Shown: positions 16,881-64,000 of the stretch, in pieces | How the letters are laid out: each line of letters opens with the position of its first letter | Position numbering within the stretch: the stretch's first letter is position 1 | Origin: a virus | Taxonomy: Duplodnaviria; Caudoviricetes | Length of the DNA: 64,000 nt | IMG/VR virus record: IMGVR_UViG_3300028833_000124 | Span: 19,650-83,649 of that record | Reading direction: 5' to 3' (one strand) | Notes under the pieces: model-generated | What the model was told of the DNA's origin: nothing | Database searches by the model: none | Seen by the model: only the letters and a program-made list of their open reading frames with translations | Position numbers and translations under genes: made by a program

Positions 16881-17396
16881 TTATCTTTTACCTTCCCTAA
16901 CAAGAATGTCATGCTCATCAATAGTATGGTTACGTGGAACAATCGGAATGCGCTGCATAAAATTTTCCAATAATCTGCAAACTATAATTTCAAAAACTTG
17001 ATCTGTTAAACCATACTTTTTTGATACCCTGTAACTTTGTAATTTTATTTTGCTGTTTTCAATCTTTTTAACATAAAACATGAATGCTAAGATTATGCAT
17101 TTTTCTGAAGCTGTATGATGTAGTTTTTTAAAGTTGCTGCTGAATTCATCTATTAGGTATCTGACAAGTTTTTTCTGATTTGGGGATAGGACTAATGTTT
17201 TTGCTTCAAGGCATAATTCATCAAAGTCATTGAATAATTCTAAGCATAATTCATCAAATATTAAATGTCTGTTTTTTCTTTTTTGTTCATATCTTACTTT
17301 TCTGTTTGTTTCTTTGCTTCTTATTTCTCCTCTGACATAGGGCTTTTCATATAATCCTAATAAATATTCTAAGCTTCTTTCTTTCATAAAAATCAC
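16881..17396 (-). CDS. Hypothetical protein, possible cyclin-fold (TFB core-like) repeat
   Basis: 'LSPNQKKLVRYLI...CIILAFMFYVKK...YRVSKKYGLT' loosely parallels a TFIIB repeat. Confidence 0.35.
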   Translation of the reverse strand: MIFMKERSLEYLLGLYEKPYVRGEIRSKETNRKVRYEQKRKNRHLIFDELCLELFNDFDELCLEAKTLVLSPNQKKLVRYLIDEFSSNFKKLHHTASEKCIILAFMFYVKKIENSKIKLQSYRVSKKYGLTDQVFEIIVCRLLENFMQRIPIVPRNHTIDEHDILVREGKR

Positions 17397-19067: not shown

Positions 19068-19744
19068 ATCCTTTTTCGATTTATTGCACGCATAACAATA
19101 CCTGCAGTTTTACTACCAATTCCTTTAATTTCTTGTAAAGTATTATTATCTAACTTTAACAAGTCATCTAAATCATATAATCCTAGATTATCAACTATTA
19201 ATTCAGCAGTATCATCACCAATATGTTTAGTTAATGCCAGATAATTGAATGCAGGATTATCAGTTTTCTGTTTTAATCTTTTCACAACATGTTTATTATC
19301 AAGACATTTTCGGGATTGTTGTCTCATGAATTTTATAGCTCTTTCTTCTGTACTGCATTCTTTAACAGTGGTGAAAGTGTTTAATCTTGCTATTGCTCCA
19401 TCATAATTATCCCATCCAAAGACATATGCTTCTCCATCAAAACCATCAAACATTTCATGTTTCTCCAGGTCACTTGCAACTACTATTACAAAATGGTATG
19501 GGAAATTTGTTGTTTGGTCGATTGCTTGGTTAAATATGCGTTTGCTTTCAACACTATCAATGAAATCAGTTAATGTTTTGTATTCAAAGCATACTTGATT
19601 ATTGAATATATAATCGCCTACTAGTAATTCTTTTACAGTTACATTGTCTTGTTTGGATTTGTAGTAACATGCTGCTTTTCTGATTCTGTCATCGTGTTCA
19701 CGATGATCTATCTGTATATTGAAATTTTTTATTTTTCGTGACAT
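19064..19744 (-). CDS. ERCC4/XPF-family nuclease with C-terminal HhH
   Basis: 'IDHRE', 'LLVGDYIF...CFEYKT..DF..S', C-terminal 'EIKGIGSKTA'. Confidence 0.85.
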   Translation of the reverse strand: MSRKIKNFNIQIDHREHDDRIRKAACYYKSKQDNVTVKELLVGDYIFNNQVCFEYKTLTDFIDSVESKRIFNQAIDQTTNFPYHFVIVVASDLEKHEMFDGFDGEAYVFGWDNYDGAIARLNTFTTVKECSTEERAIKFMRQQSRKCLDNKHVVKRLKQKTDNPAFNYLALTKHIGDDTAELIVDNLGLYDLDDLLKLDNNTLQEIKGIGSKTAGIVMRAINRKRI

Positions 19745-21412: not shown

Positions 21413-22450
21413 ATGTTAAACAATAAGCTATTCAAAAGATTTTGTAGAGAAAGAAACATAAAAGAAAGCACCGCAAGTGGTTATGAGTCAGCATTGAAAC
21501 ATTACATTAAATTTCATAAGAAAAGTTTGGATTTTTTAATGCAGGAAGCAGTAACTGATGAAAATGAAATGGTTCCTTTAAAGGATAGGAAAGTTAAAAA
21601 AAGATTGTTGAATTACAGAAGTTATCTGTTAAAAGGTAATAATTCTCCGAATACTGTGAGAACATATTTCACTAAGGTTAAAACTTTTTATATTCATTTT
21701 GATATTGAGATTCCTCATTTGCCTGATGCTAAGTATGAAAGATTATATGAAACTAATTATTTGGATTTGCCTACTCATGAGCATATTCGTCAGGCATGTG
21801 ATATTTGTGGTTTGGATTTGAAAAGTGTTATTCTTTTTATGAGTTCTTCGGGTACTGCTAAGGCCGAAACTTTAAGCATTACTGTGGAACAATTTGTTAA
21901 TGGAACAAGACAATTTCATAATGGTGGATCATTAGAACTAATACTGGAAACATTAGCTCATAAAAAAAATGTTATTCCAACTTTTTATTTGAAACGAATT
22001 AAAACTGATAAATATTATTATACTTTTTGCAGTCCTGAAGCTACACGATATATTGTGAAATATTTGCAGACTAGGAAAGATTTAAAGTTGTCAGATAAGT
22101 TGTTTGATTTTACAGCTGCTAAATTGTTGAATAAGTTTCAAGAAATTAATGATCGTATGGGTTGGGGGTTTAAAGGCAAATACCGTTTCTTTCGTGCTCA
22201 TACTTTGCGGAAGTTTCATGCTTCCAATATTGGTTTAGCTGCCGAATATATTGATGAATTACAGGGCAGGTCTAAAAATTATGTTCATAGCACATATATT
22301 AAAACTAATCCTGAGAAGTTGAAAAGGATTTATAAGTCTGCTATGCATAATGTTTTGATTTATAATAAGGATGATGTTGATGTGGTTAATCAGGAGTTTA
22401 CTATTGTGATTAATGTTTTTTTATCTGGTAAGGAATATAATATTTTATAG
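21413..22450 (+). CDS. int: Tyrosine recombinase/integrase 1
   Basis: N-terminal SAM-like domain; 'SSGTAKAE', 'RAHTLRKFHAS' (HxxR), 'LQGR...STY' (catalytic Tyr). Confidence 0.85.
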   Translation: MLNNKLFKRFCRERNIKESTASGYESALKHYIKFHKKSLDFLMQEAVTDENEMVPLKDRKVKKRLLNYRSYLLKGNNSPNTVRTYFTKVKTFYIHFDIEIPHLPDAKYERLYETNYLDLPTHEHIRQACDICGLDLKSVILFMSSSGTAKAETLSITVEQFVNGTRQFHNGGSLELILETLAHKKNVIPTFYLKRIKTDKYYYTFCSPEATRYIVKYLQTRKDLKLSDKLFDFTAAKLLNKFQEINDRMGWGFKGKYRFFRAHTLRKFHASNIGLAAEYIDELQGRSKNYVHSTYIKTNPEKLKRIYKSAMHNVLIYNKDDVDVVNQEFTIVINVFLSGKEYNIL

Positions 22451-50061: not shown

Positions 50062-51246
50062 TTAATGCTCACTAATTTGTTCAAGAATACTACTACGTGA
50101 TGTAGGTCGATTATCTATATCAGATAACCTCTCTTCAATACTTAATATCCTATCATTCATTTCTTTAACTTCAGCTTCTTTTTGCTTATACTTCCATTCT
50201 AACTCTTGATATTCTGGACTCTTTAAATCAATATTATTAATCTTTGATTCAATGAGTAAACATTGGAAATGTTCAACATATTTCTTCAAAAGAATAGTTG
50301 GATCATCAAGAAAATAAGCTGCTCTTGTTGAAGACTTGGTCCTACCTTGCAATGCATCAATATCAGATTCACTCATGCCTGATTTTTTTAGATGGTTGGA
50401 ATGGAATTTTCTCATCATGTGAGAACGGAATCTATTGAAACCATCTCCTGCTTGACCAAAATTGAATTGCTCATTATACCTGTAAAATGTAACGGGTAGA
50501 TAGTTTTCTTCAATGTCAAACAGTTTATCCTCATCAGATAATTTAATTAACTTCAAAGAACCATCAGGTAGTTTTTCAATTCTTTCGGTTAAGAGGTATT
50601 CAACGATTTTTGAAACTGCTTCTGGGCTGCAGAATGTGTAGTAATACTTGTTTGTTTTTTCTCTTTTTAATTTGAATGTTGGGATTACGTTTTCCATATC
50701 TTTTAAGACATTTAAAGCTTCTACAATGTCTGTTTTTTTATGGAAAGGAAATGTTGCTTTTTTGAATTGACCTATGGTCATTTCTATTGTTTCTTTCCTT
50801 GCGCATCCGCTTGATGTCATGAAAACAAGTACTGCCTGGAACCATAGTTTTGCTACGTGCATTACTTTGGATATTTCTTCGTGGGTTGGTAGTTCGTCGA
50901 AAGTTACTTCTCCAGGTATGTTGAAACTTCTTTGGTTGGGTTTTGTTAGATCACCAATTTCAATTTCAAAATATCTGTATACTGCAACGACTTGGGTGAA
51001 GTAGGTTGATACGGTGTTTTTTTTATAGTTTTCAATCAGATGATGTCGGAATGTTAAGAGTCTTCTTTTTAGTTTTCTTTTTTTCCAAGGTTTGTCTTCT
51101 TCTGATTCTGCTTCATCTATTAGTTCTTCCATGGTCATATGGTGGAATTCGGAGTATTTGTTTATTGCTCTGGTGTATAATTCCCTTGTTTTTGGACCAT
51201 GATTTTTAACTAAAAACAATTCTTCTAGTAATTCATGGTTATTCAT
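50062..51246 (-). CDS. int: Tyrosine recombinase/integrase 2
   Basis: 'SSGCARKE', 'RSHMMRKFHSN' (HxxR), 'LQGR...AAY'; C-terminal coiled coil; clearly homologous to recombinase 1. Confidence 0.88.
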   Translation of the reverse strand: MNNHELLEELFLVKNHGPKTRELYTRAINKYSEFHHMTMEELIDEAESEEDKPWKKRKLKRRLLTFRHHLIENYKKNTVSTYFTQVVAVYRYFEIEIGDLTKPNQRSFNIPGEVTFDELPTHEEISKVMHVAKLWFQAVLVFMTSSGCARKETIEMTIGQFKKATFPFHKKTDIVEALNVLKDMENVIPTFKLKREKTNKYYYTFCSPEAVSKIVEYLLTERIEKLPDGSLKLIKLSDEDKLFDIEENYLPVTFYRYNEQFNFGQAGDGFNRFRSHMMRKFHSNHLKKSGMSESDIDALQGRTKSSTRAAYFLDDPTILLKKYVEHFQCLLIESKINNIDLKSPEYQELEWKYKQKEAEVKEMNDRILSIEERLSDIDNRPTSRSSILEQISEH

Positions 51247-51295
51247 AATTTCTATCTCTATTTCTTATTTCTTTATAATGTTTAGAGAGAGAGCA

Positions 51296-51337
51296 TTTGC
51301 AAAGTAATATTTTTGGGTGTAATTATTACTTTGCAAA
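51296..51337. promoter_or_regulatory. 14-bp perfect inverted repeat TTTGCAAAGTAATA-N14-TATTACTTTGCAAA upstream of recombinase 2, followed by TATCATATT-type repeats
   Basis: Seen directly; about 50 bp upstream of the start codon. Confidence 0.55.
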
Positions 51338-51550
51338 TAAGTTTATCATATTTCTAACCATATGGTATATATAGTCTATGAAATATGATAATTAGTGTAT
51401 TGTTTATCATATTCCATGTATTATAGTATAAATATTATGTGGAATATGATTAACTTTTCTTCTCTCTCTGGTTAGTTATTTTTCTTTTTTGGGAGATAAA
51501 TAACTAATTATACCATGTTGTACTTTTTTGTACATTAATGTTTTTAGTTA

Positions 51551-54521: not shown

Positions 54522-56642
54522 TTAATAGGTTTTCACCCTTAAATTACGAATACAGGTACTACCATACTGAGATATAGTTAAACTATTAGCCATATTAGTA
54601 CGTCCACCAATAGTGACTTTAGAAGCTAATTCTAAATCTTCCCACATGTAAGTCACTCTGTTTTCATAGTCATCGTTTTTCCAAACGACCAAACAAGTGG
54701 ATGATTCTTTACGCACATGAACAGTATGCCAATCAACACTAGGATTACTACCATTTGCAACAATCTGCCCAGGCAATAAACTTGTTAAATGACCATTTTT
54801 AACATAATTAGTAACAGAACCACCATTTCGTGGAGTTCCTGTGATAGGTCCTTCCCAACCACTAATACCCCATCGGATATCGCCACCATCAAATGGATTA
54901 TCAGGATTAGTAATTAAAATTAAACCAGTATATCTTGTACCCCCATGATTGTAAGCTAAATCAAAAGTACATTCCCATAATCCAGTATTATCCCAACCTT
55001 CTGATAAGACTGCACCTTTAAAATAACCAATATTACTTTCCGAATCATACTGATAAGCATTACCATTACTACCCTGTTTAATAACAGCAGTATTGGCATT
55101 ATATTCTGGTTTATAAGTACAATCTTCTAAATGATATGAGATTGTTGGTAAATCTTCAAAACGACCTAAGAAATATACATCTCCTTTATTCTGAGAAGTA
55201 TGTTCAAGAGTAACTTCACCATTACTATCAGTTATAAAAGAATCATATAATGCGAAAGAATGTACTTCCATATTTTTAATGAGAATCTCATCATACAAGT
55301 AGAATAAATAGTATGGGAACCTGCCCTCATTTTTAATAGATTTAATTAATGTATTATCCACAAATATCTCTGTATAATAACCGTCATGAGTAATAGTAAG
55401 ATGGGAATTATTAGGAACATAATCCGATAATACTTCATTTTGAGCATACGTATAAACTTTAAGTTGACCTGTGATTTTAACAATATCCACATCTAATCGT
55501 GAAATTTCATTAGATAATGACCCTCCCAGTATAAATGATGAACCAGAAGATATAGAACGAATCCGTGTCCCTATATAACTCTTATATGCTTCAAGGTTGT
55601 ATGAATTAGTAATACGATCCACATTTAACTGAGATGAAGATAATTTCCTCTCAACTCTGAAGTTATCCACAGTAATATTCCCTCCACCTATGTTGAAACG
55701 GAATTTATAATATGGATCATCAGATTCGTAAACATCATATGTTTCACCATCAACATATAATGTAAACTTATGGATAGTATTGAATTTAACTTGAACATTG
55801 GAATTATTAAACGAGGATAAATTAATTTTATCATAATAAGAATTATCATCATTGAATACTTCAAGAAAAACCTTCTCCTGAACACTAATATCAGTTATGT
55901 CAAAATTAATAATCATATCTGAGTCTAATATAGTGTTACAAGTGTATGATGCTTGTTGTTCTCCACTGGCAGTAAAACCGTTTAATGTACGTGTTACAGT
56001 TAATGCTCCATATTCTGTGAAGAAATCAAAAGCATTAGATAATCCTTTTTTTATAATATTGTTTGATTTATAGATAGTGACCTCACTATCTCTGATTAAA
56101 TGATTATGCTTATGGAACGCACCAGTTACTGATGCAGTTTCATGGTTATCGTTTTCATCTAAACGATTATAACCTATGAATTCTGGTGTGCTGTTAAACC
56201 ATACACCATTACACCAGATAGTTGTACCATCTGCATCTAACTTGATAATTCGTTTATTTTCCACCATGAAATTATCAACAATTTTATTATCTAAAATAAG
56301 GTCAGCTTTAATGTTAAAAATAGCTGATACTGAGGAAGTGTACTCAGTTCCTCCAGTAGTGCCATAACCAATATTCACAGTAATAGCTGCATCTTTACTA
56401 CTAATTTCTGGGAGGTATACTTCACCACTTAAAGAACCATTAGCTCTGTAATTAATGCTTACAGGAGTGGGTTCTTCAACTAATAATGCTTCTATTTCAT
56501 TGATAATAACAGAATTAATCCAAAATCTCATATTATTACCAATAGTATTACGGATATTTACTGTGAATGGAACAGTACCTCCTTCAACAACATTACTGGA
56601 AGTTATACTCAATGTTGCCTGCAATTGTGTTACATCAGCCAT
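54522..56642 (-). CDS. Adhesin-like/tail-associated multidomain beta protein
   Basis: Ig-like segments ('ITDSNGEVTLEHTS'), internal repeated beta units, C-terminal lectin-like region; sits in the fibre/lysis module. Confidence 0.55.
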   Translation of the reverse strand: MADVTQLQATLSITSSNVVEGGTVPFTVNIRNTIGNNMRFWINSVIINEIEALLVEEPTPVSINYRANGSLSGEVYLPEISSKDAAITVNIGYGTTGGTEYTSSVSAIFNIKADLILDNKIVDNFMVENKRIIKLDADGTTIWCNGVWFNSTPEFIGYNRLDENDNHETASVTGAFHKHNHLIRDSEVTIYKSNNIIKKGLSNAFDFFTEYGALTVTRTLNGFTASGEQQASYTCNTILDSDMIINFDITDISVQEKVFLEVFNDDNSYYDKINLSSFNNSNVQVKFNTIHKFTLYVDGETYDVYESDDPYYKFRFNIGGGNITVDNFRVERKLSSSQLNVDRITNSYNLEAYKSYIGTRIRSISSGSSFILGGSLSNEISRLDVDIVKITGQLKVYTYAQNEVLSDYVPNNSHLTITHDGYYTEIFVDNTLIKSIKNEGRFPYYLFYLYDEILIKNMEVHSFALYDSFITDSNGEVTLEHTSQNKGDVYFLGRFEDLPTISYHLEDCTYKPEYNANTAVIKQGSNGNAYQYDSESNIGYFKGAVLSEGWDNTGLWECTFDLAYNHGGTRYTGLILITNPDNPFDGGDIRWGISGWEGPITGTPRNGGSVTNYVKNGHLTSLLPGQIVANGSNPSVDWHTVHVRKESSTCLVVWKNDDYENRVTYMWEDLELASKVTIGGRTNMANSLTISQYGSTCIRNLRVKTY

Positions 56643-56647
56643 ATTAT

Positions 56648-57589
56648 CTAACTTCCTGGTAATAATCTATAAGTTGATGTAGAATCATCACTAAAAGTGG
56701 CGGTTAATTCAACAAGAGAATCTTCAGTAGTTGTTAATTTACCATTACTACCTGTGACAACTGCTTTATTACTATCGGAACCTATTGCACCATTAAAATC
56801 AAGGTTTCCAATTTTTGAAGCAGTAACTATTTTACCATTATTCCCAGTAACAACAAACAAATTAGGATTACTACCAATAGCCCCTCCATTTGTGATGTTC
56901 CCATGGTCATGAATTGTTTCAGCTTTAATTTCATATAATTCTTCTAAAAAATTGTTTAAAGTATCATTTTTAGTTCCATTACTTCCTGAAATTTGATTAC
57001 CATTAAGAATGCTACTTATGTTTTCAGATGAATAAAATACAATCCAATTACTCCATCCAATAACATTTGTACTGTAATAACTACGATAAAAAATACTTCT
57101 AGTTGTACCATAAGTAAAAAATAGTTGCCCTATCCCGTTAGGTAATTCAAATACTCTTAACAATCCCCCATAAGTGGTTGGCTTATTTGTATTTCCAGAT
57201 TGATTACCATACCAGATAAAATAATCTCCAGGAGTAGTATAATCATTAAAATCTATATTAGATTGAACATTATGGTAACCATCAGTTTGAGTCCATTCAG
57301 CATCCCATTTATTAGAATCTAAATTATAATTACGGAAATAAGTATCTCTCGCATCATATCTCATCAAATACTGTCTAACAGAATGACTACGAATAACTAC
57401 TAATGAAAAAGCTTTAACAGTAGGACAATTAGTACATGCAGATGCAATAGCATTTGACTCACATCTATAAAATCCTTCAGTCTTATAATCATTTAGATCA
57501 ACAGCACTAGTAATCATAACAGATTTTGATATTTTATTATTTGCAGTTGATAATTCTTTTAAATCATAATCTGGCATTTTATAACTCAC
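56648..57589 (-). CDS. Tail fibre-type protein with two pyocin-knob-like repeats
   Basis: 'DLNDYKTEGFY...VRQY...TYFRNY...W' and 'DFNDYTTPGDY...GQLF...IFYRSY...WSNW'; C-terminal 'HDHGNITNGGAIG' and GxIV repeats. Confidence 0.65.
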   Translation of the reverse strand: MSYKMPDYDLKELSTANNKISKSVMITSAVDLNDYKTEGFYRCESNAIASACTNCPTVKAFSLVVIRSHSVRQYLMRYDARDTYFRNYNLDSNKWDAEWTQTDGYHNVQSNIDFNDYTTPGDYFIWYGNQSGNTNKPTTYGGLLRVFELPNGIGQLFFTYGTTRSIFYRSYYSTNVIGWSNWIVFYSSENISSILNGNQISGSNGTKNDTLNNFLEELYEIKAETIHDHGNITNGGAIGSNPNLFVVTGNNGKIVTASKIGNLDFNGAIGSDSNKAVVTGSNGKLTTTEDSLVELTATFSDDSTSTYRLLPGS

Positions 57590-57599
57590 CTTATTTTTT

Positions 57600-57866
57600 T
57601 TATTTGTTTATATGGTATTCAACAGATTCAGTTTCACCCGCACATTCAACACTAAAAGTGTAGGTTTTATCTTCTTCAAAACTTGTTCCTGCAATTGCAA
57701 CACCTTTATCATCAGTCATTGTGGTTGCAAAATGATTATCGTTAATGTAGAAGATTATTTGTTCATGTGGTGAACTTGTTTCCGCACGGATTTCTAAATA
57801 TTCAGTTTCAAATTCAGGTTCTAATTTTTTTGATATTTTTATTTTAATCGACATAGGTTTTTTCAC
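57600..57866 (-). CDS. Small Ig-like domain protein
   Basis: 'IIFYIN...TTMTDDKGVA...YTFSVECAG'. Confidence 0.55.
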   Translation of the reverse strand: MKKPMSIKIKISKKLEPEFETEYLEIRAETSSPHEQIIFYINDNHFATTMTDDKGVAIAGTSFEEDKTYTFSVECAGETESVEYHINK

Positions 57867-57920
57867 CTCGAATTATGGGTATAAGTCAACAGAAAAAATT
57901 GACTATAAACATGAAATTAT

Positions 57921-58337
57921 GTAAAAGATAAGAACAACTTATTAAGTCATAATGTATGGTCAGGTACGGATTATTCAAAATCAATAACAGGTTTTAAAGT
58001 TTCCAATAATGCAATTCTCTCAACCAGTAATGAATGGAGGATTAATGGCGAAAGAAGTTTAAAATGTGAATGCTCCCAGAATAATACTTTTGACGGAGTA
58101 AAAATTTTTTTAAAATTAGATAATATTGCTGTGACAGTGAAGTTAACAGTTTATAATCCTCAAGATAATGTAACTGTTAGATTACATAACCCCAATAACT
58201 ATGTTCAAACTATTCTGCCTCTGTCAGACACTCCGTTTGAAGTTGAATTATCTAATAATGATTGTACTTATTTGGAAATATTTAGTAGAGTTATACAAAC
58301 ATTCTATATAGATAATGTGCAAGTAAATATTCAGTAA
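57921..58337 (+). CDS. Cassette 1 (138 aa, no start codon), CBM-like domain
   Basis: VKDKNNLLSHNVWSGTDY...SNEWRINGERSLKC...FYIDNVQVNIQ*. Confidence 0.8.
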   Translation, partial: VKDKNNLLSHNVWSGTDYSKSITGFKVSNNAILSTSNEWRINGERSLKCECSQNNTFDGVKIFLKLDNIAVTVKLTVYNPQDNVTVRLHNPNNYVQTILPLSDTPFEVELSNNDCTYLEIFSRVIQTFYIDNVQVNIQ

Positions 58338-58816
58338 AAGAGAAACGAAATTTAATAGGATTCAATCTTTGGAGTGGAACAGATTATTTAAATGATATCT
58401 CAAAAGAACAAACAGAGAAAACAGATTTTTCATGCACACAAGGATTAAATGCTCTTGAATCATCAAAAGAATGGTCTTCAAATTATGAGAAAAGTATAAA
58501 ATCCAACTTATCTTCATCTAATTACATAGTATTTTTCCTATATGATTTTGATGCAAATTATTCATACACGGCAAGTGTTGACATCAAAGCAGAATGTAAC
58601 GGAGCACTATATTTCATAGCAAGAAATAATAATGCTGGAACAAATACAGTAGTGAAATCAGTAACATTTGCAGCATCTGAAAACACACAAACAATACAAT
58701 CAAAAATAGATTCCAATGAATTCAAAGGAAACGAAACACAATTACAAATAAGGATAGCACATAACTCCTCAGGAATAATTTACTCCGATAATTGGTGTTT
58801 ACTCACTAACGGTTAA
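58334..58816 (+). CDS. Cassette 2 (160 aa), ends at the tail-to-tail junction
   Basis: VKEKRNLIGFNLWSGTDY...SKEWSSNYEKSIK...IYSDNWCLLTNG*; absent from the track. Confidence 0.8.
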   Translation, partial: VKEKRNLIGFNLWSGTDYLNDISKEQTEKTDFSCTQGLNALESSKEWSSNYEKSIKSNLSSSNYIVFFLYDFDANYSYTASVDIKAECNGALYFIARNNNAGTNTVVKSVTFAASENTQTIQSKIDSNEFKGNETQLQIRIAHNSSGIIYSDNWCLLTNG

Positions 58817-59260
58817 AATCCAATTATCCGTATACACAACTGCATCTTCATGAGCATAATCTTTAGGTTCAACACGATACAATACATGAATAACATTTTC
58901 AGGTATGGATAAATTAATAGAATAAGTCCCCCATGTATTTATAGGCACATCTACATACCTCGGGATATACTGCGTAGTATAATAATAAATATAAAGTCGA
59001 CAGGCATAATTAGAGTAAATATCTGCCGAGAAGGTGATGTTTTTACCTACTTCATTAAAATCATTGGAACTACGATATTCCACATAATATACTTCTCCTA
59101 ACTTGCTTAGACTCATTTTTAAAGAAGTATCTCCAATGGTATGATACGAGGAGGACAATTCCCTATTTGCAGTGGCAGTTATTGTGAACTCATTAAAGTT
59201 TTGATTATAATCCCCACATGTCCAAATATTATGAGGGAATAGGTTAGTCTTATCTTTTAC
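58799..59260 (-). CDS. Cassette 3 (153 aa), ends at the tail-to-tail junction
   Basis: VKDKTNLFPHNIWTCGDY...IGDTSLK...VYTDNWILTVSE*. Confidence 0.8.
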   Translation of the reverse strand, partial: VKDKTNLFPHNIWTCGDYNQNFNEFTITATANRELSSSYHTIGDTSLKMSLSKLGEVYYVEYRSSNDFNEVGKNITFSADIYSNYACRLYIYYYTTQYIPRYVDVPINTWGTYSINLSIPENVIHVLYRVEPKDYAHEDAVVYTDNWILTVSE

Positions 59261-59697
59261 TGAACAATTATCTTAATGTTATCAATGTAACAATAAGCTC
59301 CAATTTCATTACTTGTTAAAAATATTGAATATCTTCCATTAGTTACTGTAATATCATTGGAAACAGAGTAATTATAGAAATTATCATTAATAGGGATTTC
59401 AGTAGTCTTATAACCTTTATTATATATTTGTATTGAAGTATTGTTATGAGGAGTGTAAATATCACATGAAAAAATAATTCGTTTACCTATATCTTGATCT
59501 GTTAATATTATTGGAGTAACACGGAAAATACAATTTCCGGCTAATGAAGTTTTAATTAATTTAAAAGAATATTCACCATTTGAATGATATGTTGATAATT
59601 CAATTTCACCATTCTCTACAGCAATATTATTTATATTCTTTAAATAGTCTCCTCCGCTCCAGAAGTTATAATCAGTTAGATTGTTCTTATCTTTTAC
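59257..59697 (-). CDS. Cassette 4 (146 aa)
   Basis: VKDKNNLTDYNFWSGGDY...NGEYSFKL...YIDNIKIIVQ*; absent from the track. Confidence 0.8.
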   Translation of the reverse strand, partial: VKDKNNLTDYNFWSGGDYLKNINNIAVENGEIELSTYHSNGEYSFKLIKTSLAGNCIFRVTPIILTDQDIGKRIIFSCDIYTPHNNTSIQIYNKGYKTTEIPINDNFYNYSVSNDITVTNGRYSIFLTSNEIGAYCYIDNIKIIVQ

Positions 59698-60131
59698 TGA
59701 CGAACTAATTTAAAATCATCAACATAAATATACTGTCCTATTTCAGTAGGGTTTATCCGTACACGAGTTTCTAAAAATGAAATTTCAGAAATAGTTAATG
59801 TAACAACAGATTTTTTTGGAGTATTAGATTTAGGAATCGTTATACTGGAAGCATTTCCATTAGTTCTATTATATAAAAGTAATTGAGCATTAGTTAATGG
59901 ATTAAAAATTGTAACTGATGATTCATATGTTCCAATTTCAGCATTATCGAATATTTCACCTATAAATTGATTATATACATTTACTTCAGTACTTATTCCT
60001 TTTAAACTATATTCTCCAATGCTTGCCCATTCATTTGAACGAACAATATCTGCTTTGGTTTCTGTATTATATTTAATTGCATAATCACAGCTCCATCTGT
60101 CAAAACTATAAAGATTGTCTTTATCTTTTAC
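59694..60131 (-). CDS. Cassette 5 (145 aa)
   Basis: VKDKDNLYSFDRWSCDY...SNEWASIGEYSLK...YVDDFKLVRQ*; absent from the track. Confidence 0.8.
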   Translation of the reverse strand, partial: VKDKDNLYSFDRWSCDYAIKYNTETKADIVRSNEWASIGEYSLKGISTEVNVYNQFIGEIFDNAEIGTYESSVTIFNPLTNAQLLLYNRTNGNASSITIPKSNTPKKSVVTLTISEISFLETRVRINPTEIGQYIYVDDFKLVRQ

Positions 60132-60583
60132 TGTTGCAATAATTGGAGATTATCTATGAAAACTGTACCATTTACACAAGGGAACATTAAAAGTAATCTA
60201 TTATAATCTTTTGGTATTGTTCCTGTAATTACTATTGACATTGTTTCCCCAGTTGTGCATGAAACACTACCTACTAATTGTTGATTTAATGTTGAACTTC
60301 CTTGCCGAGCAAATAACCTTACTGTTGATGTTTCACCATTATTTTTCAAGTTTACTGTGAATTTATATGTTGTTTCAGATAGTACATTAACTAGGGTATA
60401 GAAATATCGTGAGTCAACATTATTTTGAGTTAATGTGGTTGCTTTAAATGATTTATCACCATTGCTACACCATTCATTGCTAACTTCAACGGATACGCTT
60501 GAAGCATAGTTTAAGTAACTTGAATTCAGGTAATCTCCACCAGACCATATGTTGTAGTTTAATATGTTTGCGTTATCTTTTAC
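60128..60583 (-). CDS. Cassette 6 (151 aa)
   Basis: VKDNANILNYNIWSGGDY...SNEWCSNGDKSFK...FIDNLQLLQQ*. Confidence 0.8.
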   Translation of the reverse strand, partial: VKDNANILNYNIWSGGDYLNSSYLNYASSVSVEVSNEWCSNGDKSFKATTLTQNNVDSRYFYTLVNVLSETTYKFTVNLKNNGETSTVRLFARQGSSTLNQQLVGSVSCTTGETMSIVITGTIPKDYNRLLLMFPCVNGTVFIDNLQLLQQ

Positions 60584-61014
60584 GAAATTAGTTTTAAATT
60601 TATATCATCCATAAATACTATCCCTTCACTTAATAACACTATGTGAATGTCTACTCTTTGAATTTCATTGGTAAGTGGGATGTTAATTAATGGGTTGCTT
60701 TCACCTGCTGAATTTGATACGGAATATGATGTTGTTTCATTATTTGAATCAATTAATTGTATTCTAAACTGGTTAGTTGTATTGGAGTATATATTTGAGG
60801 ATATTTGAATGGTTTGGGATGATGATATTTTTTGTATGATTTGAAATCCTGCCCAATCCCATGTGTTCCCATTTAATTTTAAACTATACTCCCCATTGTA
60901 TGCCCATTCATTTGATATTTCAGCAGCACAATCGTTTCTCTTTGAAATGGGGATTGTGCCAAAATCTCCACAACTCCAAATATTATAATTTAGTAAATTA
61001 TTCTTATCTTTTAC
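60580..61014 (-). CDS. Cassette 7 (144 aa)
   Basis: VKDKNNLLNYNIWSCGDF...SNEWAYNGEYSLKL...FMDDINLKLIS*. Confidence 0.8.
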   Translation of the reverse strand, partial: VKDKNNLLNYNIWSCGDFGTIPISKRNDCAAEISNEWAYNGEYSLKLNGNTWDWAGFQIIQKISSSQTIQISSNIYSNTTNQFRIQLIDSNNETTSYSVSNSAGESNPLINIPLTNEIQRVDIHIVLLSEGIVFMDDINLKLIS

Positions 61015-61463
61015 TGAAATGTTAATCTCCAATTATCTATGTAAATGAAATCAGATGAATTAGCATTATTTTTAGTAATTCTATACCATTCTTGAGTAGC
61101 ATTTTCTGATATTTGTTTAGTAACTTGATATGTTCCTGGAGTATTTGCAGGGACCGTAATACTATTTGAATTGTAATTATTAGTTAAATCATAAATAATT
61201 AATCTGCAATTAGTATTAGAATAAATATCAACTGTTAGTGTAACAGTTTTACCAACTTCATTAAACCTATTATTTCCAACAATCTCAACGTACCATTCTG
61301 TACTAATATCCATAGGAGTCATTTTAATTGAAGAATTTCCTATAGTAGAATAATCCTTTGTACTAGATAAAGTTGCATTTATCATATGAAATTGAGATAA
61401 GGAGTTATTTATTTCACCAGCGCTCCAAACCTCATGAGAAAAAAGATTTTCTTTATCTTTTAC
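61011..61463 (-). CDS. Cassette 8 (150 aa)
   Basis: VKDKENLFSHEVWSAGE...IGNSSIK...YIDNWRLTFQ*. Confidence 0.8.
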   Translation of the reverse strand, partial: VKDKENLFSHEVWSAGEINNSLSQFHMINATLSSTKDYSTIGNSSIKMTPMDISTEWYVEIVGNNRFNEVGKTVTLTVDIYSNTNCRLIIYDLTNNYNSNSITVPANTPGTYQVTKQISENATQEWYRITKNNANSSDFIYIDNWRLTFQ

Positions 61464-61885
61464 GAAATTATAATATTATCCACATAACAAGAAACGCAAT
61501 CTCTAATAATTAATATTAATTGGAAATTTGATGTAGTTGAAATAATTTTAGAAATACTAATTTTCTGACTACCTTCTTTATTTGGAATAGTCACGTCATT
61601 ATATTGATTATTATCTACTTCTATTAATCTTAAATAAACATTACTTGTTGAATTATTCAACACATCTAATGTAGCAGAAATTTGTTGGTTACTTTGAAGA
61701 TCATCAAACCTATTTAATACACATGCACAATAACCATTAATGAGACCAGTTAATTTAAGACTTTGTTCTCCATTAGTAAACCAATCTTTAGATAATTCAT
61801 AATCCATATTATTAACTGTAAATAATGGATTATATTCCCCTCCGCTCCAAGCGGAAAATGATGCAAGATTATTTTTATCTTTTAC
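61460..61885 (-). CDS. Cassette 9 (141 aa)
   Basis: VKDKNNLASFSAWSGGEY...SKDWFTNGEQSLKL...YVDNIIIS*. Confidence 0.8.
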   Translation of the reverse strand, partial: VKDKNNLASFSAWSGGEYNPLFTVNNMDYELSKDWFTNGEQSLKLTGLINGYCACVLNRFDDLQSNQQISATLDVLNNSTSNVYLRLIEVDNNQYNDVTIPNKEGSQKISISKIISTTSNFQLILIIRDCVSCYVDNIIIS

Positions 61886-62310
61886 AGTATAGTTAAATTA
61901 AGATCATCAATATAACATGTTGTTGGATAGTTGGTTAATACGATTCTACAGATAACATAATCATAATCTGATGTTAAATTAGCTGTTAAATTAATTATTT
62001 GAGGATTGTTTGAAGGAGAAATTAATATGTTATTTAAAAGAACAGAGGAACTATTACTCATTCTAGCACCATTATATAATCTAACAGTATTATCTGTTAA
62101 AATTGTTATTTTAGTGTTAAATGAATTATTATTTGAATAAGGCACTTCAAATGTTAAATACTCCCATTCAGAAACATTATTTTTAATTAATTTTATACAG
62201 TAATCTCCATTACTGGACCATTCATTACTAATTTCCCCATAGGGTATGTTTAAGTTTAAATCACCACAAGACCATTGATTAAATGAAACTATCTTATTCT
62301 TATCTTTTAC
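61882..62310 (-). CDS. Cassette 10 (142 aa)
   Basis: VKDKNKIVSFNQWSCGD...SNEWSSNGDYCIKL...YIDDLNLTIL*. Confidence 0.8.
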   Translation of the reverse strand, partial: VKDKNKIVSFNQWSCGDLNLNIPYGEISNEWSSNGDYCIKLIKNNVSEWEYLTFEVPYSNNNSFNTKITILTDNTVRLYNGARMSNSSSVLLNNILISPSNNPQIINLTANLTSDYDYVICRIVLTNYPTTCYIDDLNLTIL

Positions 62311-62744
62311 TGAATGTTTAGGGTAATGGATTCTATGAAAAATTCATGTATTAAATCTTCTTGTCCTGTAACAGCCCAGTTTATGTTTAGGCTTTGACTG
62401 TTCTCAGGTATTTGTTTACTTAATATTACTTTATGAAAATCATTTGAGATATTAATAGTTGCTCCAGCGACCCATTTCCCATCAATACTGAATTGTTGAG
62501 TAATATGTGTGTTAACTGCCTGTATATTTGCAGTTACTGTCACCGTTTTACCCCAATCTTCTGCAGTTAAATCATAATTAAAATATAACTGCGTGTAGGC
62601 ATTGCTTTGCTTATTCCGTACGATTAAATAATCTGCAGTTAAAGTCGCTATTGTTGTACCGTAGAAACTTAAACCCTCCGTATTATTTAAGTATCTACCA
62701 CAACTCCAAACATTATGAGATAAGAGATTATCCTTATCTTTTAC
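62307..62744 (-). CDS. Cassette 11 (145 aa)
   Basis: VKDKDNLLSHNVWSCGRY...FFIESITLNIQ*. Confidence 0.8.
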   Translation of the reverse strand, partial: VKDKDNLLSHNVWSCGRYLNNTEGLSFYGTTIATLTADYLIVRNKQSNAYTQLYFNYDLTAEDWGKTVTVTANIQAVNTHITQQFSIDGKWVAGATINISNDFHKVILSKQIPENSQSLNINWAVTGQEDLIHEFFIESITLNIQ

Positions 62745-63202
62745 TGAATAAATATCCTAATATTTTTAATAAACATTTTATCATTAATTAATGCTGTATT
62801 ATTCAAATAAAATCTCACTTCTAATTGGCTGGATTCAGAGGGTATTTGTAAGCTCAGTGTTGATTCTATAAAATCATTTGAGGAAGATATTTGTACACTA
62901 CCCAAATTATTATTTCCCCAAAATTGTATCGCCCCATAAGAAGAACTAACTACTTTGAAATCTGTAATTACAGTTAACTTGTTTCCTTTAAGTTGTGTGA
63001 GAAAATCATTTAAATTAATGCTTACAATACTGTAAGAATTATAAGAACTTACTTTAGTTAAACAAACTGTATAAAAATCATCAACTTTGCTTAATGTAGT
63101 GGAGTAATTTGACCCACTCTGCCATGTGAAATCAGATAAATCTTTTGAATATTCACCAGCACTCCATTGGTTAAAAGTAGCAATGTTTAATTTATCTTTT
63201 AC
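62741..63202 (-). CDS. Cassette 12 (153 aa)
   Basis: VKDKLNIATFNQWSAGEY...MFIKNIRIFIQ*; absent from the track. Confidence 0.8.
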   Translation of the reverse strand, partial: VKDKLNIATFNQWSAGEYSKDLSDFTWQSGSNYSTTLSKVDDFYTVCLTKVSSYNSYSIVSINLNDFLTQLKGNKLTVITDFKVVSSSYGAIQFWGNNNLGSVQISSSNDFIESTLSLQIPSESSQLEVRFYLNNTALINDKMFIKNIRIFIQ

Positions 63203-63645
63203 TGAATGGTTATGCAGATATTATCTAAATTATATGTTCCAATATTCGCACCAGAAACTGTGAAAATACAAGCTAATGGTTCAAGATTAGGAATATTGGT
63301 AGTTAATTTAAAATTACCATTAGAATTAATAGGAATACTACTACTATTTAATAAAACTGAATTTTTAATCATTTGACTAATTTGTACTGTATTATCAAGT
63401 ATATCTCCTGAAAAAGTTATTTTTTTATTTAAATCATCTGTTGAAGGAGTATAAATATATCCTATTTCAGACCAACTTGTTACTGTTTCATTTTTTGTGA
63501 ATTTTATTGATGTTGATCCAATTGATGATTTTGTTTTATCTATTTCAAAAAATTTTGGGTTTGTTCTGTGAATTTCATTTAAACTATTTGTGAATTCTCC
63601 GGCACTCCATAATGTATATGATAAAATATTAGTTTTATCTTTTAC
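63199..63645 (-). CDS. Cassette 13 (148 aa)
   Basis: VKDKTNILSYTLWSAGEF...IGSTSIK...YNLDNICITIQ*; absent from the track. Confidence 0.8.
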   Translation of the reverse strand, partial: VKDKTNILSYTLWSAGEFTNSLNEIHRTNPKFFEIDKTKSSIGSTSIKFTKNETVTSWSEIGYIYTPSTDDLNKKITFSGDILDNTVQISQMIKNSVLLNSSSIPINSNGNFKLTTNIPNLEPLACIFTVSGANIGTYNLDNICITIQ

Positions 63646-64000
63646 TGAGCGGTTAAAAATAGATTATCAACAAAAACAATATCTCCTAAGCTTATTAAAT
63701 TAACACGAATTCCAATATACTCTGGATTTTCAAATTCAAGATTACGAGTTAATTCAATTGTCCTAACAGTATTTCCAGAAGGCACCCTTACTGATGATCT
63801 TTTTACTTCATTATTTTTTACTTCAACTAACCACATATCACATGAGCCATTAGGACAATAAACTTTTAATGAACAGGAAATAGTAGTCCCATTGAAGTTA
63901 TAAATTGGGAATAATGTCCATACATAATTTTCTGATTCACGAGTTAATTTGAAACTTCTTTCACCTGTAAAACTCCATTCAGTTGAAGAAACTGTTTTTT
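63642..64000 (-). CDS. Cassette 14 (partial, 5' end beyond the window)
   Basis: ...STEWSFTGERSFKL...FVDNLFLTAQ*; frame open to the window edge. Confidence 0.75.
   Translation of the reverse strand, partial: KTVSSTEWSFTGERSFKLTRESENYVWTLFPIYNFNGTTISCSLKVYCPNGSCDMWLVEVKNNEVKRSSVRVPSGNTVRTIELTRNLEFENPEYIGIRVNLISLGDIVFVDNLFLTAQ

Follow-up and report, generated by a model that had tools for sequence, protein, structure and literature searches.

Does the end of this viral contig hold a set of exchangeable receptor-binding domains, and by which mechanism could one of them be expressed at a time? We analysed a stretch of 64,000 nt (hereafter the window), positions 19,650 to 83,649 of the IMG/VR record IMGVR_UViG_3300028833_000124 (Duplodnaviria; Caudoviricetes). 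A reading made from the sequence alone had proposed a shufflon-type array of at least 14 silent cassettes, carried by a methanogen virus.

At the window end we detected 14 homologous cassettes of 138–160 aa each, every one headed by GTAAAAGA(T/G)A(A/C) (Table 1). The number given by the sequence-only reading therefore held, but not the claim that all of them are silent: the cassette cut by the window end is expressed, and 13 are silent. Similarly, the array is a one-way series for 12 cassettes, but not for cassettes 12 and 13, which lie on the other strand and converge with the rest at a single tail-to-tail junction, where cassettes 13 and 11 overlap by 18 nt. The site search, the ORF listing and the translations confirmed a seamless array of cassettes that generally lack start codons of their own, with the exception of cassette 7, where a TTG lies in frame 18 nt before the site. 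Cassettes 11 and 13 have stops of their own. For most cassettes only 5'-truncated ORFs were listed, in line with the earlier remark that the ORF track misses or truncates almost all of them. The reported N-terminal signature, shared skeleton and high divergence were also recovered by translation and alignment: the N-termini of all 13 visible cassettes were VKDK, VKDN or VKEK, the common skeleton comprised N6, W13-S14-x-G, S.EW...G..S.K and a terminal Y.DN..L strand, and pairwise protein identity was only 18–34%. A repeat search of the array found no duplicated cassette.

Table 1. Cassettes, recombinase genes and associated region in the window (window coordinates).
Feature	Position	Strand	Remarks
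Short tyrosine recombinase paralogue, 345 aa	21413..22450	+	Candidate invertase
Long tyrosine recombinase paralogue, 394 aa	50062..51246	-	Extra C-terminal tail; coiled coil predicted from sequence
attP-like region upstream of long recombinase	51247..51500	-	Homologous to region joining host DNA in relatives
Inverted silent cassette 12, 138 aa	57921..58337	+	Outermost site 57921-57931; adjoins non-cassette flank
Inverted silent cassette 13, 160 aa	58334..58816	+	N-terminus VKEK; variant site GTAAAAGAGAA at 58334-58344; other half of pivot
Silent cassette 11, 153 aa	58799..59260	-	Site 59250-59260; own stop 58799-58801; half of fixed tail-to-tail pivot
Silent cassette 10, 146 aa	59260..59697	-	Site 59687-59697
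Silent cassette 9, 145 aa	59697..60131	-	Site 60121-60131
Silent cassette 8, 151 aa	60131..60583	-	N-terminus VKDN; site 60573-60583
Silent cassette 7, 144 aa	60583..61014	-	Site 61004-61014; directly after cassette 1 in X4
Silent cassette 6, 150 aa	61014..61463	-	Site 61453-61463
Silent cassette 5, 141 aa	61463..61885	-	Site 61875-61885
Silent cassette 4, 142 aa	61885..62310	-	Site 62300-62310
Silent cassette 3, 145 aa	62310..62744	-	Site 62734-62744; in X4 inverted and joined to flank at 57920
Silent cassette 2, 153 aa	62744..63202	-	Site 63192-63202
Silent cassette 1, 148 aa	63202..63645	-	Site 63635-63645; fused to constant part in goat-gut run X4
Cassette 0, 3' part of expressed tail/receptor-binding gene	63642..64000	-	Rest of gene past window end

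The contig is circular (146-bp end overlap with 1 mismatch), and reading on past 64000 leads into its own first bases. The constant tail or adhesin gene that had been predicted beyond the window was found there: an ATG-started minus-strand ORF (contig 1-1119, start at base 1119) reads in frame through its own site, GTAAAAGATAC (contig 230-240), into cassette 0, with a total of 443 aa. Its constant N-terminal part comprises about 293 aa, ends in ...KCSDDLTMF and has a weak match to the Ig-like Big_1 domain. The same fusion gene is called as a 443-aa gene, directly after a 289-aa gene, in an ENA contig of 83,629 bp that contains an identical 309-aa neighbour protein and may derive from the same sample as our source. 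The layout is that of one expressed gene with a constant 5' part, and of alternative 3' segments without starts of their own.

Between 59250 and 63645 the - strand has 11 exact copies of GTAAAAGATAA; the + strand has a single exact copy, at 57921, and a one-mismatch copy, GTAAAAGAGAA, at 58334. In the whole window, 22 matches with at most one mismatch were recovered against 5.9 expected, a number reached in none of 100 shuffles. Successive sites are 422–458 nt apart, always 2 mod 3, so that the TAA inside the next site (cAG TAA / GTA AAA GAT AA) is the stop codon of most cassettes. The short conserved site stands at every constant/variable boundary and in both orientations (12 forward and 2 inverted). 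The positions of GTAAAAGA were invariant in 30 out of 30 sites from two viruses, codon third positions included, with varying flanks, and the cassettes behind this core share only about 25% protein identity. No perfect repeat longer than the core was found in the repeat search of the array, which makes general homologous recombination unlikely.

Arrangements were compared between samples, using assembled Logan contigs. Run X4 (goat gut, a different study) yielded a 38-kb contig at depth 34, whose pieces were mostly 98–99% identical to the window, with about 94% identity for the copy of cassette 0. Its cassettes are those of the window but differ in order and orientation, and its breakpoints, opposite-strand joints included, coincide exactly with the sites. 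In particular, the flank at 57920 is joined to 62744 across opposite strands (12 nt shared), cassette 3 is followed by cassette 0, and 61003 is joined to 63192 (15 nt shared); the shared stretches of only 12–15 nt argue against mis-assembly at k=31. Behind 63645 the contig has a loose end that reads, in reverse complement, ...NKCSDDLTMF and so corresponds to the terminus of the constant gene; in X4 this gene is fused to cassette 1, while cassette 0 has been relocated and inverted, neither lost nor duplicated. In run X8, positions 63191, 61004 and 57937 were joined to other partners, and cassettes 5 and 6 were separated by one more cassette, about 443 nt long; run X3 had three junctions in common with the source sample. 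Every breakpoint seen among these independent runs sits exactly at the 11-bp site. No minority junction was seen in the assembled contigs of the source sample (run X1), which gave one collinear 46-kb contig; what we observed is rearrangement between samples, not switching within one population.

The site and the convergent layout recur in three related records, which differ in the number of cassettes on either side. One of them (G001) carries 9 forward and 7 inverted cassettes; in the provirus G002 the constant part is fused, via the variant site, to the pivot cassette, the homologue of our cassette 13, and at least 11 cassettes are inverted. Yet another cassette is expressed in a Methanobrevibacter MAG contig. 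Cassette order and orientation are thus not invariant among samples and relatives, and together the fusion gene and the isoforms with breakpoints at the sites support the earlier proposal of shufflon-type, interchangeable C-terminal cassettes. The convergent form was present in all genomes examined, and inversions between opposed 5' sites can generate no other.

We consider it highly probable that the locus is a multiple-inversion cassette system (shufflon) in a tailed virus of rumen Methanobrevibacter, from which any of 14 domains can be expressed. At GTAAAAGA(T/G)A(A/C), which translates to Val-Lys-Asp/Glu, the constant part continues into a single C-terminal domain (about 150 aa), and downstream follow 13 further domains of this family, each headed by the same site and lacking a start codon or promoter. 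The array always consists of forward cassettes, one fixed tail-to-tail pivot and inverted cassettes. Strand exchange by a site-specific recombinase would pair a forward with an inverted site and most likely take place within the invariant 8 bp GTAAAAGA, and the resulting inversion would flip all the DNA between both sites and bring a formerly inverted cassette behind the constant part. By repeated inversions any of the 14 domains could be expressed, and the virion would then bind a different host surface glycan. We infer that the reaction is programmed and frequent. Since 12 out of 14 sites point the same way, cassettes would be deleted by a recombinase that has no bias; recombination between direct sites is presumably suppressed.

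The single arrangement in the source sample, the three junctions that X3 shares with it and the lack of a recombinase gene adjoining the array would also fit a static family of paralogous domains, in which sample differences reflect rare evolutionary events of illegitimate or homologous recombination without a programmed switch. We regard this as unlikely: the breakpoints seen all fall exactly at 11-bp sites, synonymous positions of the 8-bp core do not vary in any of the 30 sites while the cassettes are otherwise about 25% identical, the silent cassettes keep open frames despite their absent starts, and the inversion-type convergent form recurs in every genome examined. Moreover, a homology of 8–11 bp is too short for RadA-type homologous recombination. 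Flanking homology of only 11 bp argues as well against gene conversion, that is, the copying of silent cassettes into the expression site without reciprocal inversion, as in Neisseria pilS/pilE. The many promoterless partial genes and the one expression site resemble such a system, but no cassette is duplicated within the array, and the fate of cassette 0 in X4 is the one predicted by reciprocal exchange; we judge gene conversion very improbable.

A still less credible explanation is recoding, by a -1 shift at CAG-UAA (the next frame starting from GUA, one base back) that leads to read-through, or else independent translation of the cassettes. Each cassette does follow the stop before it in the -1 frame, and the TTG of cassette 7 is in frame just upstream of the site. 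However, two cassettes are on the opposite strand, some cassettes stop on their own codon a few bases before the site, the site has no X XXY YYZ slippery heptamer, and the DNA rearrangements were seen directly; twelve consecutive frameshifts would also be expected to leave almost no product. Diversity-generating retroelements (DGRs) are reportedly enriched in viruses of gut methanogens, but here the variation lies between whole domains and not at adenine positions, and neither a reverse transcriptase nor a template/variable repeat pair (TR/VR-like long repeat) was found in the genome. A DGR, already dismissed in the sequence-only reading, is refuted.

Regarding the enzyme behind the favoured inversion system, no recombinase gene was found in or adjoining the array, the candidates being separated from it by 6.7 kb and 35 kb. 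The genome had no PF00239 match, in a search whose control was positive in 12 out of 14 control genomes, which rules out a serine invertase system of the Gin/Min type. Catalysis would be carried out by one of the two virus-encoded tyrosine recombinases, and by elimination the 345-aa paralogue is the favoured candidate for the shufflon invertase. The 394-aa paralogue is probably the integrase, because its close relatives sit at provirus/host junctions; it gave only weak PF00589 matches and no sequence match against PDB. In the ARKET/AKAET motif, the short paralogue has a Lys where the long one has an Arg, a position that may be the first catalytic Arg.

The structural model of cassette 1 (pLDDT 85) is a beta-jelly-roll, with best matches to CBM16, CBM4 and CBM22 modules (2zey, Foldseek E 5e-6, TM 0.69) and further matches to phage minor tail and receptor-binding proteins. 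A PF02018 (CBM_4_9) sequence match was obtained for 1 out of 15 cassettes (E 2.4e-4). The predicted fold is a CBM4/16/22-type galactose-binding-like jelly-roll, as in phage tail-protein tips, and from this fold we infer that the cassette binds the receptor and would decide its specificity. The virus lysin contains a pseudomurein-binding repeat; together with the source names of the recombinase relatives and the binned Methanobrevibacter contig, it supports a pseudomurein-walled methanogen (Methanobrevibacter) as the likely host, in agreement with the host first suggested.

A comparable layout is found in the vsa/HvsR system of Mycoplasma pulmonis, where numerous silent genes, truncated at the 5' end and each preceded by a recombination site, are activated at a single expression site by tyrosine-recombinase inversions; unlike the array described here, it is cellular and not viral, encodes bacterial surface lipoproteins and recombines at a 34-bp vrs site. 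Among known systems, the one closest to ours is the Rin shufflon of Bifidobacterium breve/longum prophages (Mavrich et al. 2018, PMC6109161). Both are phage- or virus-encoded, with a constant N-terminal receptor-binding-protein gene followed by a tandem series of small C-terminal segments without promoters, a short, asymmetric site of 11 bp ahead of each segment, a predicted tyrosine and not serine recombinase, and isoforms that differ between related prophages. Rin, however, belongs to a bacterial host and has few cassettes, with the rin gene directly flanking the array, whereas the present array has 14–16 cassettes of CBM type and one fixed tail-to-tail pivot, and no recombinase gene lies beside it. 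The Rin site rix (TTCCCTAACCC) and TP901-1-like cassette fold are unrelated to those described here, and so, presumably, is the recombinase. The R64 (IncI1) pilV shufflon (Rci/sfx) is similar in its tyrosine recombinase (for our locus a predicted one), inversion, swapped adhesin C-terminus and asymmetric site, of which the core and the right arm are conserved but not the left arm; it differs in concerning a plasmid pilus adhesin, with convergent ORF pairs per segment, a 19-bp sfx and four segments giving seven C-termini. Compared with those four segments and the few cassettes of Rin, the present system is indeed unusually large, as had been supposed. In a review (PMC8371274), Rci and the archaeal tyrosine recombinases were not found to be directly related.

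Min (p15B), Gin (Mu) and Cin (P1) likewise rely on site-specific inversion to switch the C-termini of phage tail fibres and with them the host range, Min with multiple crossover sites, but they depend on serine invertases, dyad-symmetric sites and an enhancer. Among archaeal tailed viruses, inversion by Int1 of the haloarchaeal myovirus phiCh1 exchanges tail-fibre 3' ends, and the C-termini have galactose-binding domains (Rossler 2004, Klein 2012, summarised in PMC4284463). In that case two convergent full genes flank the recombinase gene, which is itself inverted, and exchange occurs within repeat clusters, with no library of silent cassettes (PMC4284463). The locus studied here does not have that layout: its array contains no recombinase gene, and a single gene is full-length. 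In the literature searched we found no report of a shufflon for methanogen viruses.

The strategy of the bacterial and phage R64/Min/Rin-type systems would thereby extend to methanogen viruses, at an unusually large scale. Only a handful of methanogen viruses have been isolated and very little is known about their host recognition, while interest in them is growing in relation to rumen methane mitigation and the human gut archaeome. A library of 14–16 exchangeable glycan-binding tips would explain how they keep pace with variable Methanobrevibacter surfaces. Because gene callers miss or truncate most of the array, standard annotation under-reports the receptor-binding repertoire. The cassettes could provide a natural set of binding modules for typing methanogen surface glycans, and the 8-bp core site with the two tyrosine recombinase paralogues would make a compact archaeal inversion system, a possible genetic tool.

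Convergent-array shufflons may be a general, archaeal-virus-specific switch of receptor-binding domains in Methanobrevibacter viruses, operated at high frequency and in trans by the 345-aa integrase paralogue (with Lys at the possible first catalytic Arg) and existing in two or more versions whose sites are unrelated (GTAAAAGA..., with 12–16 CBM or ConA-like cassettes; TTCAGCAAATA..., with 4–5 cassettes). This broader proposal is tentative, and we lean slightly against it. If true, the virions released by one lysogen would show up to 16 different receptor specificities, and this programmed host-range switch would rank among the largest known in any virus. In G004-like viruses, the same recombinase pair adjoins a second, smaller cassette system, a point in favour of the inversion system described above; no GTAAAAGATAA array was found in G004, a point against it. 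Finally, a 97-aa cassette of these viruses, 100% identical, was found on opposite strands in two samples.

We found the 11-bp sequence GTAAAAGATAA in exactly 11 minus-strand copies at 59250-63645 and in one plus-strand copy at 57921 in a scan of the window, together with a one-mismatch copy, GTAAAAGAGAA, at 58334 on the plus strand. With up to one mismatch allowed, the whole window contained 22 matches to GTAAAAGATAA, where 5.9 were expected; all of 100 shuffles gave fewer. Neighbouring minus-strand sites were 422-458 nt apart and their spacing was always 2 mod 3; most cassettes closed with ...cAG TAA, a stop contained in the following site, and the cassette after it began one base back, as GTA AAA GAT AA. 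Site-to-site translation gave 13 complete domains of 138-160 aa with the N-termini VKDK, VKDN or VKEK, which had in common N6, W13-S14-x-G, S.EW...G..S.K and a terminal Y.DN..L strand, while pairwise identity among cassettes was only 18-34%. For most of them the ORF finder returned mere 5'-truncated pieces. The cassette array claimed by the sequence-only reading was thus confirmed in its sites, spacing, translated domains and truncated ORF calls. As first described, however, it needed amendment: the common site held, but the cassettes at 57921-58337 and 58334-58816 read on the plus strand, convergent with the other twelve, and a few have their own stop instead of the TAA in the next site. A 12th exact minus-strand copy of GTAAAAGATAA was located at 16881-16891, 41 kb outside the array, in the 3' end of an ORF (16881-17396) but in a different frame; this copy is probably due to chance, though if used it would permit a 41-kb rearrangement. 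Immediately beyond the outermost site there is also an 84-aa ORF with a good Shine-Dalgarno (57600-57854, minus strand), and small ORFs of 88-89 aa occupy the equivalent position in L104, a related record.

Just beyond the window end, an ATG-started minus-strand ORF was identified at contig 1-1119. Its first residues are MANNIQQYNLRKMINNHFF..., it continues to ...KINKCSDDLTMF and crosses the site GTAAAAGATAC at contig 230-240, and its reading frame runs on into the cassette at window 64000-63645, for a whole gene of 443 aa. The in-frame constant gene predicted beyond 64000 therefore exists, and the window-end cassette (cassette 0), previously counted as silent, is the expressed one. The window takes up positions 19650-83649 of a virus record of 83,649 bp. 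The first 146 bases of the contig equal the last 146 (contig 1-146 = window 63855-64000) with one A/G mismatch, so the record, classed as linear by its source, is circular or circularly permuted, and complete. The constant gene is located in the tail and baseplate cluster and has a weak Big_1 (Ig-like) match; downstream of the array there are a tail-fibre-like protein (phrog_11373) and a lysin with a pseudomurein-binding repeat. An 83,629-bp ENA contig, perhaps from the same sample as the window, encodes an identical 309-aa neighbour protein; there, the 443-aa gene is called directly after a 289-aa tail gene and the array is called as 84-124-aa fragments only. Back-translated patterns of the constant N-terminus recovered no relative in viral_contigs, and the exact constant-end junction DNA had no match in metagenome_contigs or viral_contigs, sets that possibly do not include the window's nearest records. 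The host is a rumen Methanobrevibacter. Relatives of the recombinase carry source names as Methanobrevibacter integrases, a binned contig of a goat omasum Methanobrevibacter MAG contains an array fragment, and the public runs with this stretch come from gut metagenomes (sheep, goat and bovine).

Contigs of four sequencing runs were compared with window 56500-64000. In X4, a goat-gut sample from a study other than the source's, a 38-kb contig (depth 34) matched the window piece by piece, mostly at 98-99% identity (about 94% for cassette 0), in a different arrangement. The flank ended at 57920 and continued on the opposite strand at 62744, where cassette 3 starts, with 12 letters shared; cassette 3 was followed by exactly 84 letters, the expected beyond-window part of cassette 0, and then by cassette 0, with cassettes 5 and 6, likewise oriented, farther along. 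The opposite end had cassette 7 joined to cassette 1 (61003|63192) with 15 letters shared, and beyond 63645 the contig read, in reverse complement, ...NKCSDDLTMF, with which the constant gene ends. In X4 the constant part is therefore fused to cassette 1, and cassette 0 is silent in an inverted block. Since shared stretches of 12-15 nt cannot mis-join a k=31 assembly, these arrangements are real DNA, and the alternative junctions breaking exactly at the sites that the earlier proposal called for are present in this contig. In X8 the sequences joined at 63191, 61004 and 57937 were different ones, and cassettes 5 and 6 had an additional cassette of about 443 nt between them; X3 had three junctions common with the window, and X1, the sheep-gut source sample, gave a single collinear 46-kb contig. 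No minority junctions at sites were seen in the X1 assembled contigs, which drop rare variants, and this result does not count against switching.

Across 30 aligned sites, taken from two viruses, GTAAAAGA was invariant, all codon third positions included, position 9 was T or G, position 11 was A or C, and the T at -3 was nearly invariant. The left arm was variable apart from this T, and the right arm was partly conserved through VKDKxNL coding. The window's constant site has C at position 11 (VKDT, cassette 0), and in the related provirus G002 the constant part is joined to a variant ...GAGAA site. The bases that differ at positions 9 and 11 appear to move together with the cassette, which would put strand exchange inside the invariant 8 bp or immediately to their left. 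Tyrosine recombinases have an 8-bp overlap region, and the invariant stretch would have the size expected of it.

Coordinates and layout of the arrays and associated features. L-handles are stretches of related records; G001 and G002 are related viral records with arrays.
Feature	Location or record	Strand	Size or layout	Expressed cassette
Array, window genome (G000)	83.6 kb, ends overlap 146 bp		12 forward, 2 inverted	cassette 0
Array, G001	80.7 kb, terminal repeats		9 forward, 7 inverted	own cassette, within 280-aa gene
Array, G002	provirus		1 forward (pivot cassette 13 homologue), at least 11 inverted	pivot cassette, via variant GAGAA site
Array, Methanobrevibacter MAG contig	2.9 kb		1 forward seen, at least 5 inverted	a further cassette
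Array, L104	part of 82.6-kb contig		no forward or expressed cassette seen, 5 inverted, in the part examined	
Pivot overlap, cassettes 11/13	window 58799-58816		18 nt, tail-to-tail	
Pivot overlap	L017:5287-5301		15 nt, tail-to-tail	
Pivot overlap	L013:11066-11069		4 nt, tail-to-tail	
Long tyrosine recombinase	window 50062-51246	-	394 aa	
Short tyrosine recombinase	window 21413-22450	+	345 aa	
attP-like region, upstream of long recombinase	window 51247-51500; L112:6900-7000; L116:9850-10000			
G004-like cassette systems	L023:4501-6542; L108:1097-2720; L111:1337-2579			

All arrays have cassettes headed by this 11-bp site and run from forward cassettes through one tail-to-tail pivot to inverted cassettes. 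With sites at the 5' ends, inversion between a forward and an inverted cassette only interconverts convergent forms and leaves the pivot pair intact, so these layouts match the prediction for inversion only. Cassette order and orientation, whose comparison in related contigs had been proposed, do vary, both in the forward/inverted split and in the expressed cassette; cassette sets also vary from lineage to lineage, except close to the sites. G000, G001 and G002 all retain the VKEK pivot cassette and its variant site, GTAAAAGAGAA. In the window's pivot overlap, ...DNW... is encoded by both cassettes, resulting in a 9-bp inverted repeat (GATAATTGG/CCAATTATC). Comparison of L016:7869-8711 and L013:7249-7880 with window-genome contig 1-1119 placed the module after a 914-aa baseplate gene in G001 and L104, and after a 289-aa gene in G000 and G002, with constant parts of about 122 aa (G001/L104) versus 293 aa (G000/G002); the whole module, constant gene and array, seems to be mobile inside the tail cluster. 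The spaced two-site search pattern also gave many chance matches in AT-rich bacterial genomes. L099 and L101 were dropped as arrays, being repeats of a 2658-aa bacterial surface protein, and L011 (G003), with two sites only, was left out of the array count.

A site-specific inversion cassette system is very likely, and active switching within populations is reasonably probable. A static array of paralogues with rare evolutionary shuffling does not fit, given that every breakpoint seen falls at a site, the core is conserved even at synonymous positions and the silent frames are still intact. The inverted cassettes and the DNA rearrangements seen rule out recoding (a -1 shift at CAG-UAA) as the main mechanism, and gene conversion is unlikely, as cassette 0 in X4 had moved elsewhere without a copy. 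A diversity-generating retroelement, already rejected by the sequence-only reading, is excluded: no reverse transcriptase was found in the genome, and the repeat search of the array detected no perfect repeat longer than the site.

The closest described system to this inversion array is the Rin shufflon of Bifidobacterium prophages, in which a constant receptor-binding gene is likewise accompanied by tandem C-terminal segments without promoters, the sites are asymmetric and 11 bp long, and a tyrosine invertase is predicted; it differs in its few cassettes, adjacent recombinase gene and unrelated site and fold (PMC6109161). In the archaeal virus phiCh1 the segment that inverts lies between two full tail-fibre genes and, unlike the window array, is no cassette library (PMC4284463). 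R64/Rci and Min/Gin/Cin follow the same principle with other enzymes or architectures. A full-text literature search, with a 2023 methanogen-virus compendium outside its scope, retrieved no account of such a system in methanogen or Methanobrevibacter viruses, and we class the window system as an unusually large new variant of a known principle.

Modelled from an alignment of 23 cassettes, cassette 1 (pLDDT 85) was a beta-jelly-roll, with the carbohydrate-binding modules CBM16, CBM4 and CBM22 and a phage tailspike domain as best solved matches and minor tail and receptor-binding proteins as best viral matches; one cassette reached Pfam CBM_4_9 (E 2.4e-4). This predicted fold, together with the position of the cassettes, suggests that they form a receptor-binding tip. 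Some cassettes of related arrays (L017:216-3486; L066:1480-2892) are without N..WS.G and end in ...F(K/R)NF.(I/V)Y..., and one of those had a weak match to a ConA-like lectin (Laminin_G_3, E 0.0014). Some G002 and MAG cassettes look like a different lectin fold, with a weak Laminin_G_3 match, and one recombination site may be common to cassettes of two different folds.

No serine recombinase was found in the genome. Two tyrosine recombinase paralogues, 40% identical to each other, both matched the phrog_1 integrase (~1e-11) with weak Pfam integrase matches, and both were conserved in G001 and in G004, a relative; the 394-aa protein had no PDB sequence match. Relatives of the long paralogue (76-79% identical) are at the extreme provirus edge, about 100-170 nt from host DNA, and in four assemblies their host neighbours are the same genes (EPSP synthase, HhH-GPD, PALP); the window region upstream of the long paralogue is homologous to their provirus/host junction region, so the long paralogue is most likely the integrase. 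It had been considered as the invertase, being nearer the array, and was dropped in view of these junctions. The short paralogue is, by elimination only, the candidate invertase, though the integrase could serve as both. The short paralogue has a Lys (AKAET) in place of the long one's Arg (ARKET) in 3 out of 3 aligned orthologues, and is without the long one's 50-aa C-terminal tail, a predicted coiled coil. ARAGORN and Rfam detected no tRNA or tRNA-like attP beside the short recombinase. The attP-like region contains two direct repeats, imperfect and about 55 nt long, and its repeated motif GAATATGATAAAC bears a loose likeness to the shufflon core GTAAAAGATAAA; integrated relatives are just downstream of a host PALP-family gene, beside EPSP synthase and HhH-GPD genes.

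The candidacy of the short paralogue is tempered by its Lys and by G004, which has both recombinases but had no GTAAAAGATAA array. In G004-like viruses 3-5 cassettes, each of about 100 aa and headed by TTCAGCAAATA..., come after a tail gene of about 290 aa, and the C-terminal ~100 aa of the tail protein begin at the same TTCAGCAAATA... Across samples that encode an identical integrase the small ORFs are on either strand. One 97-aa cassette, 100% identical, was on opposite strands in two samples with identical integrase proteins. This smaller system of the same design indicates that inversion systems are recurrent in this virus group.
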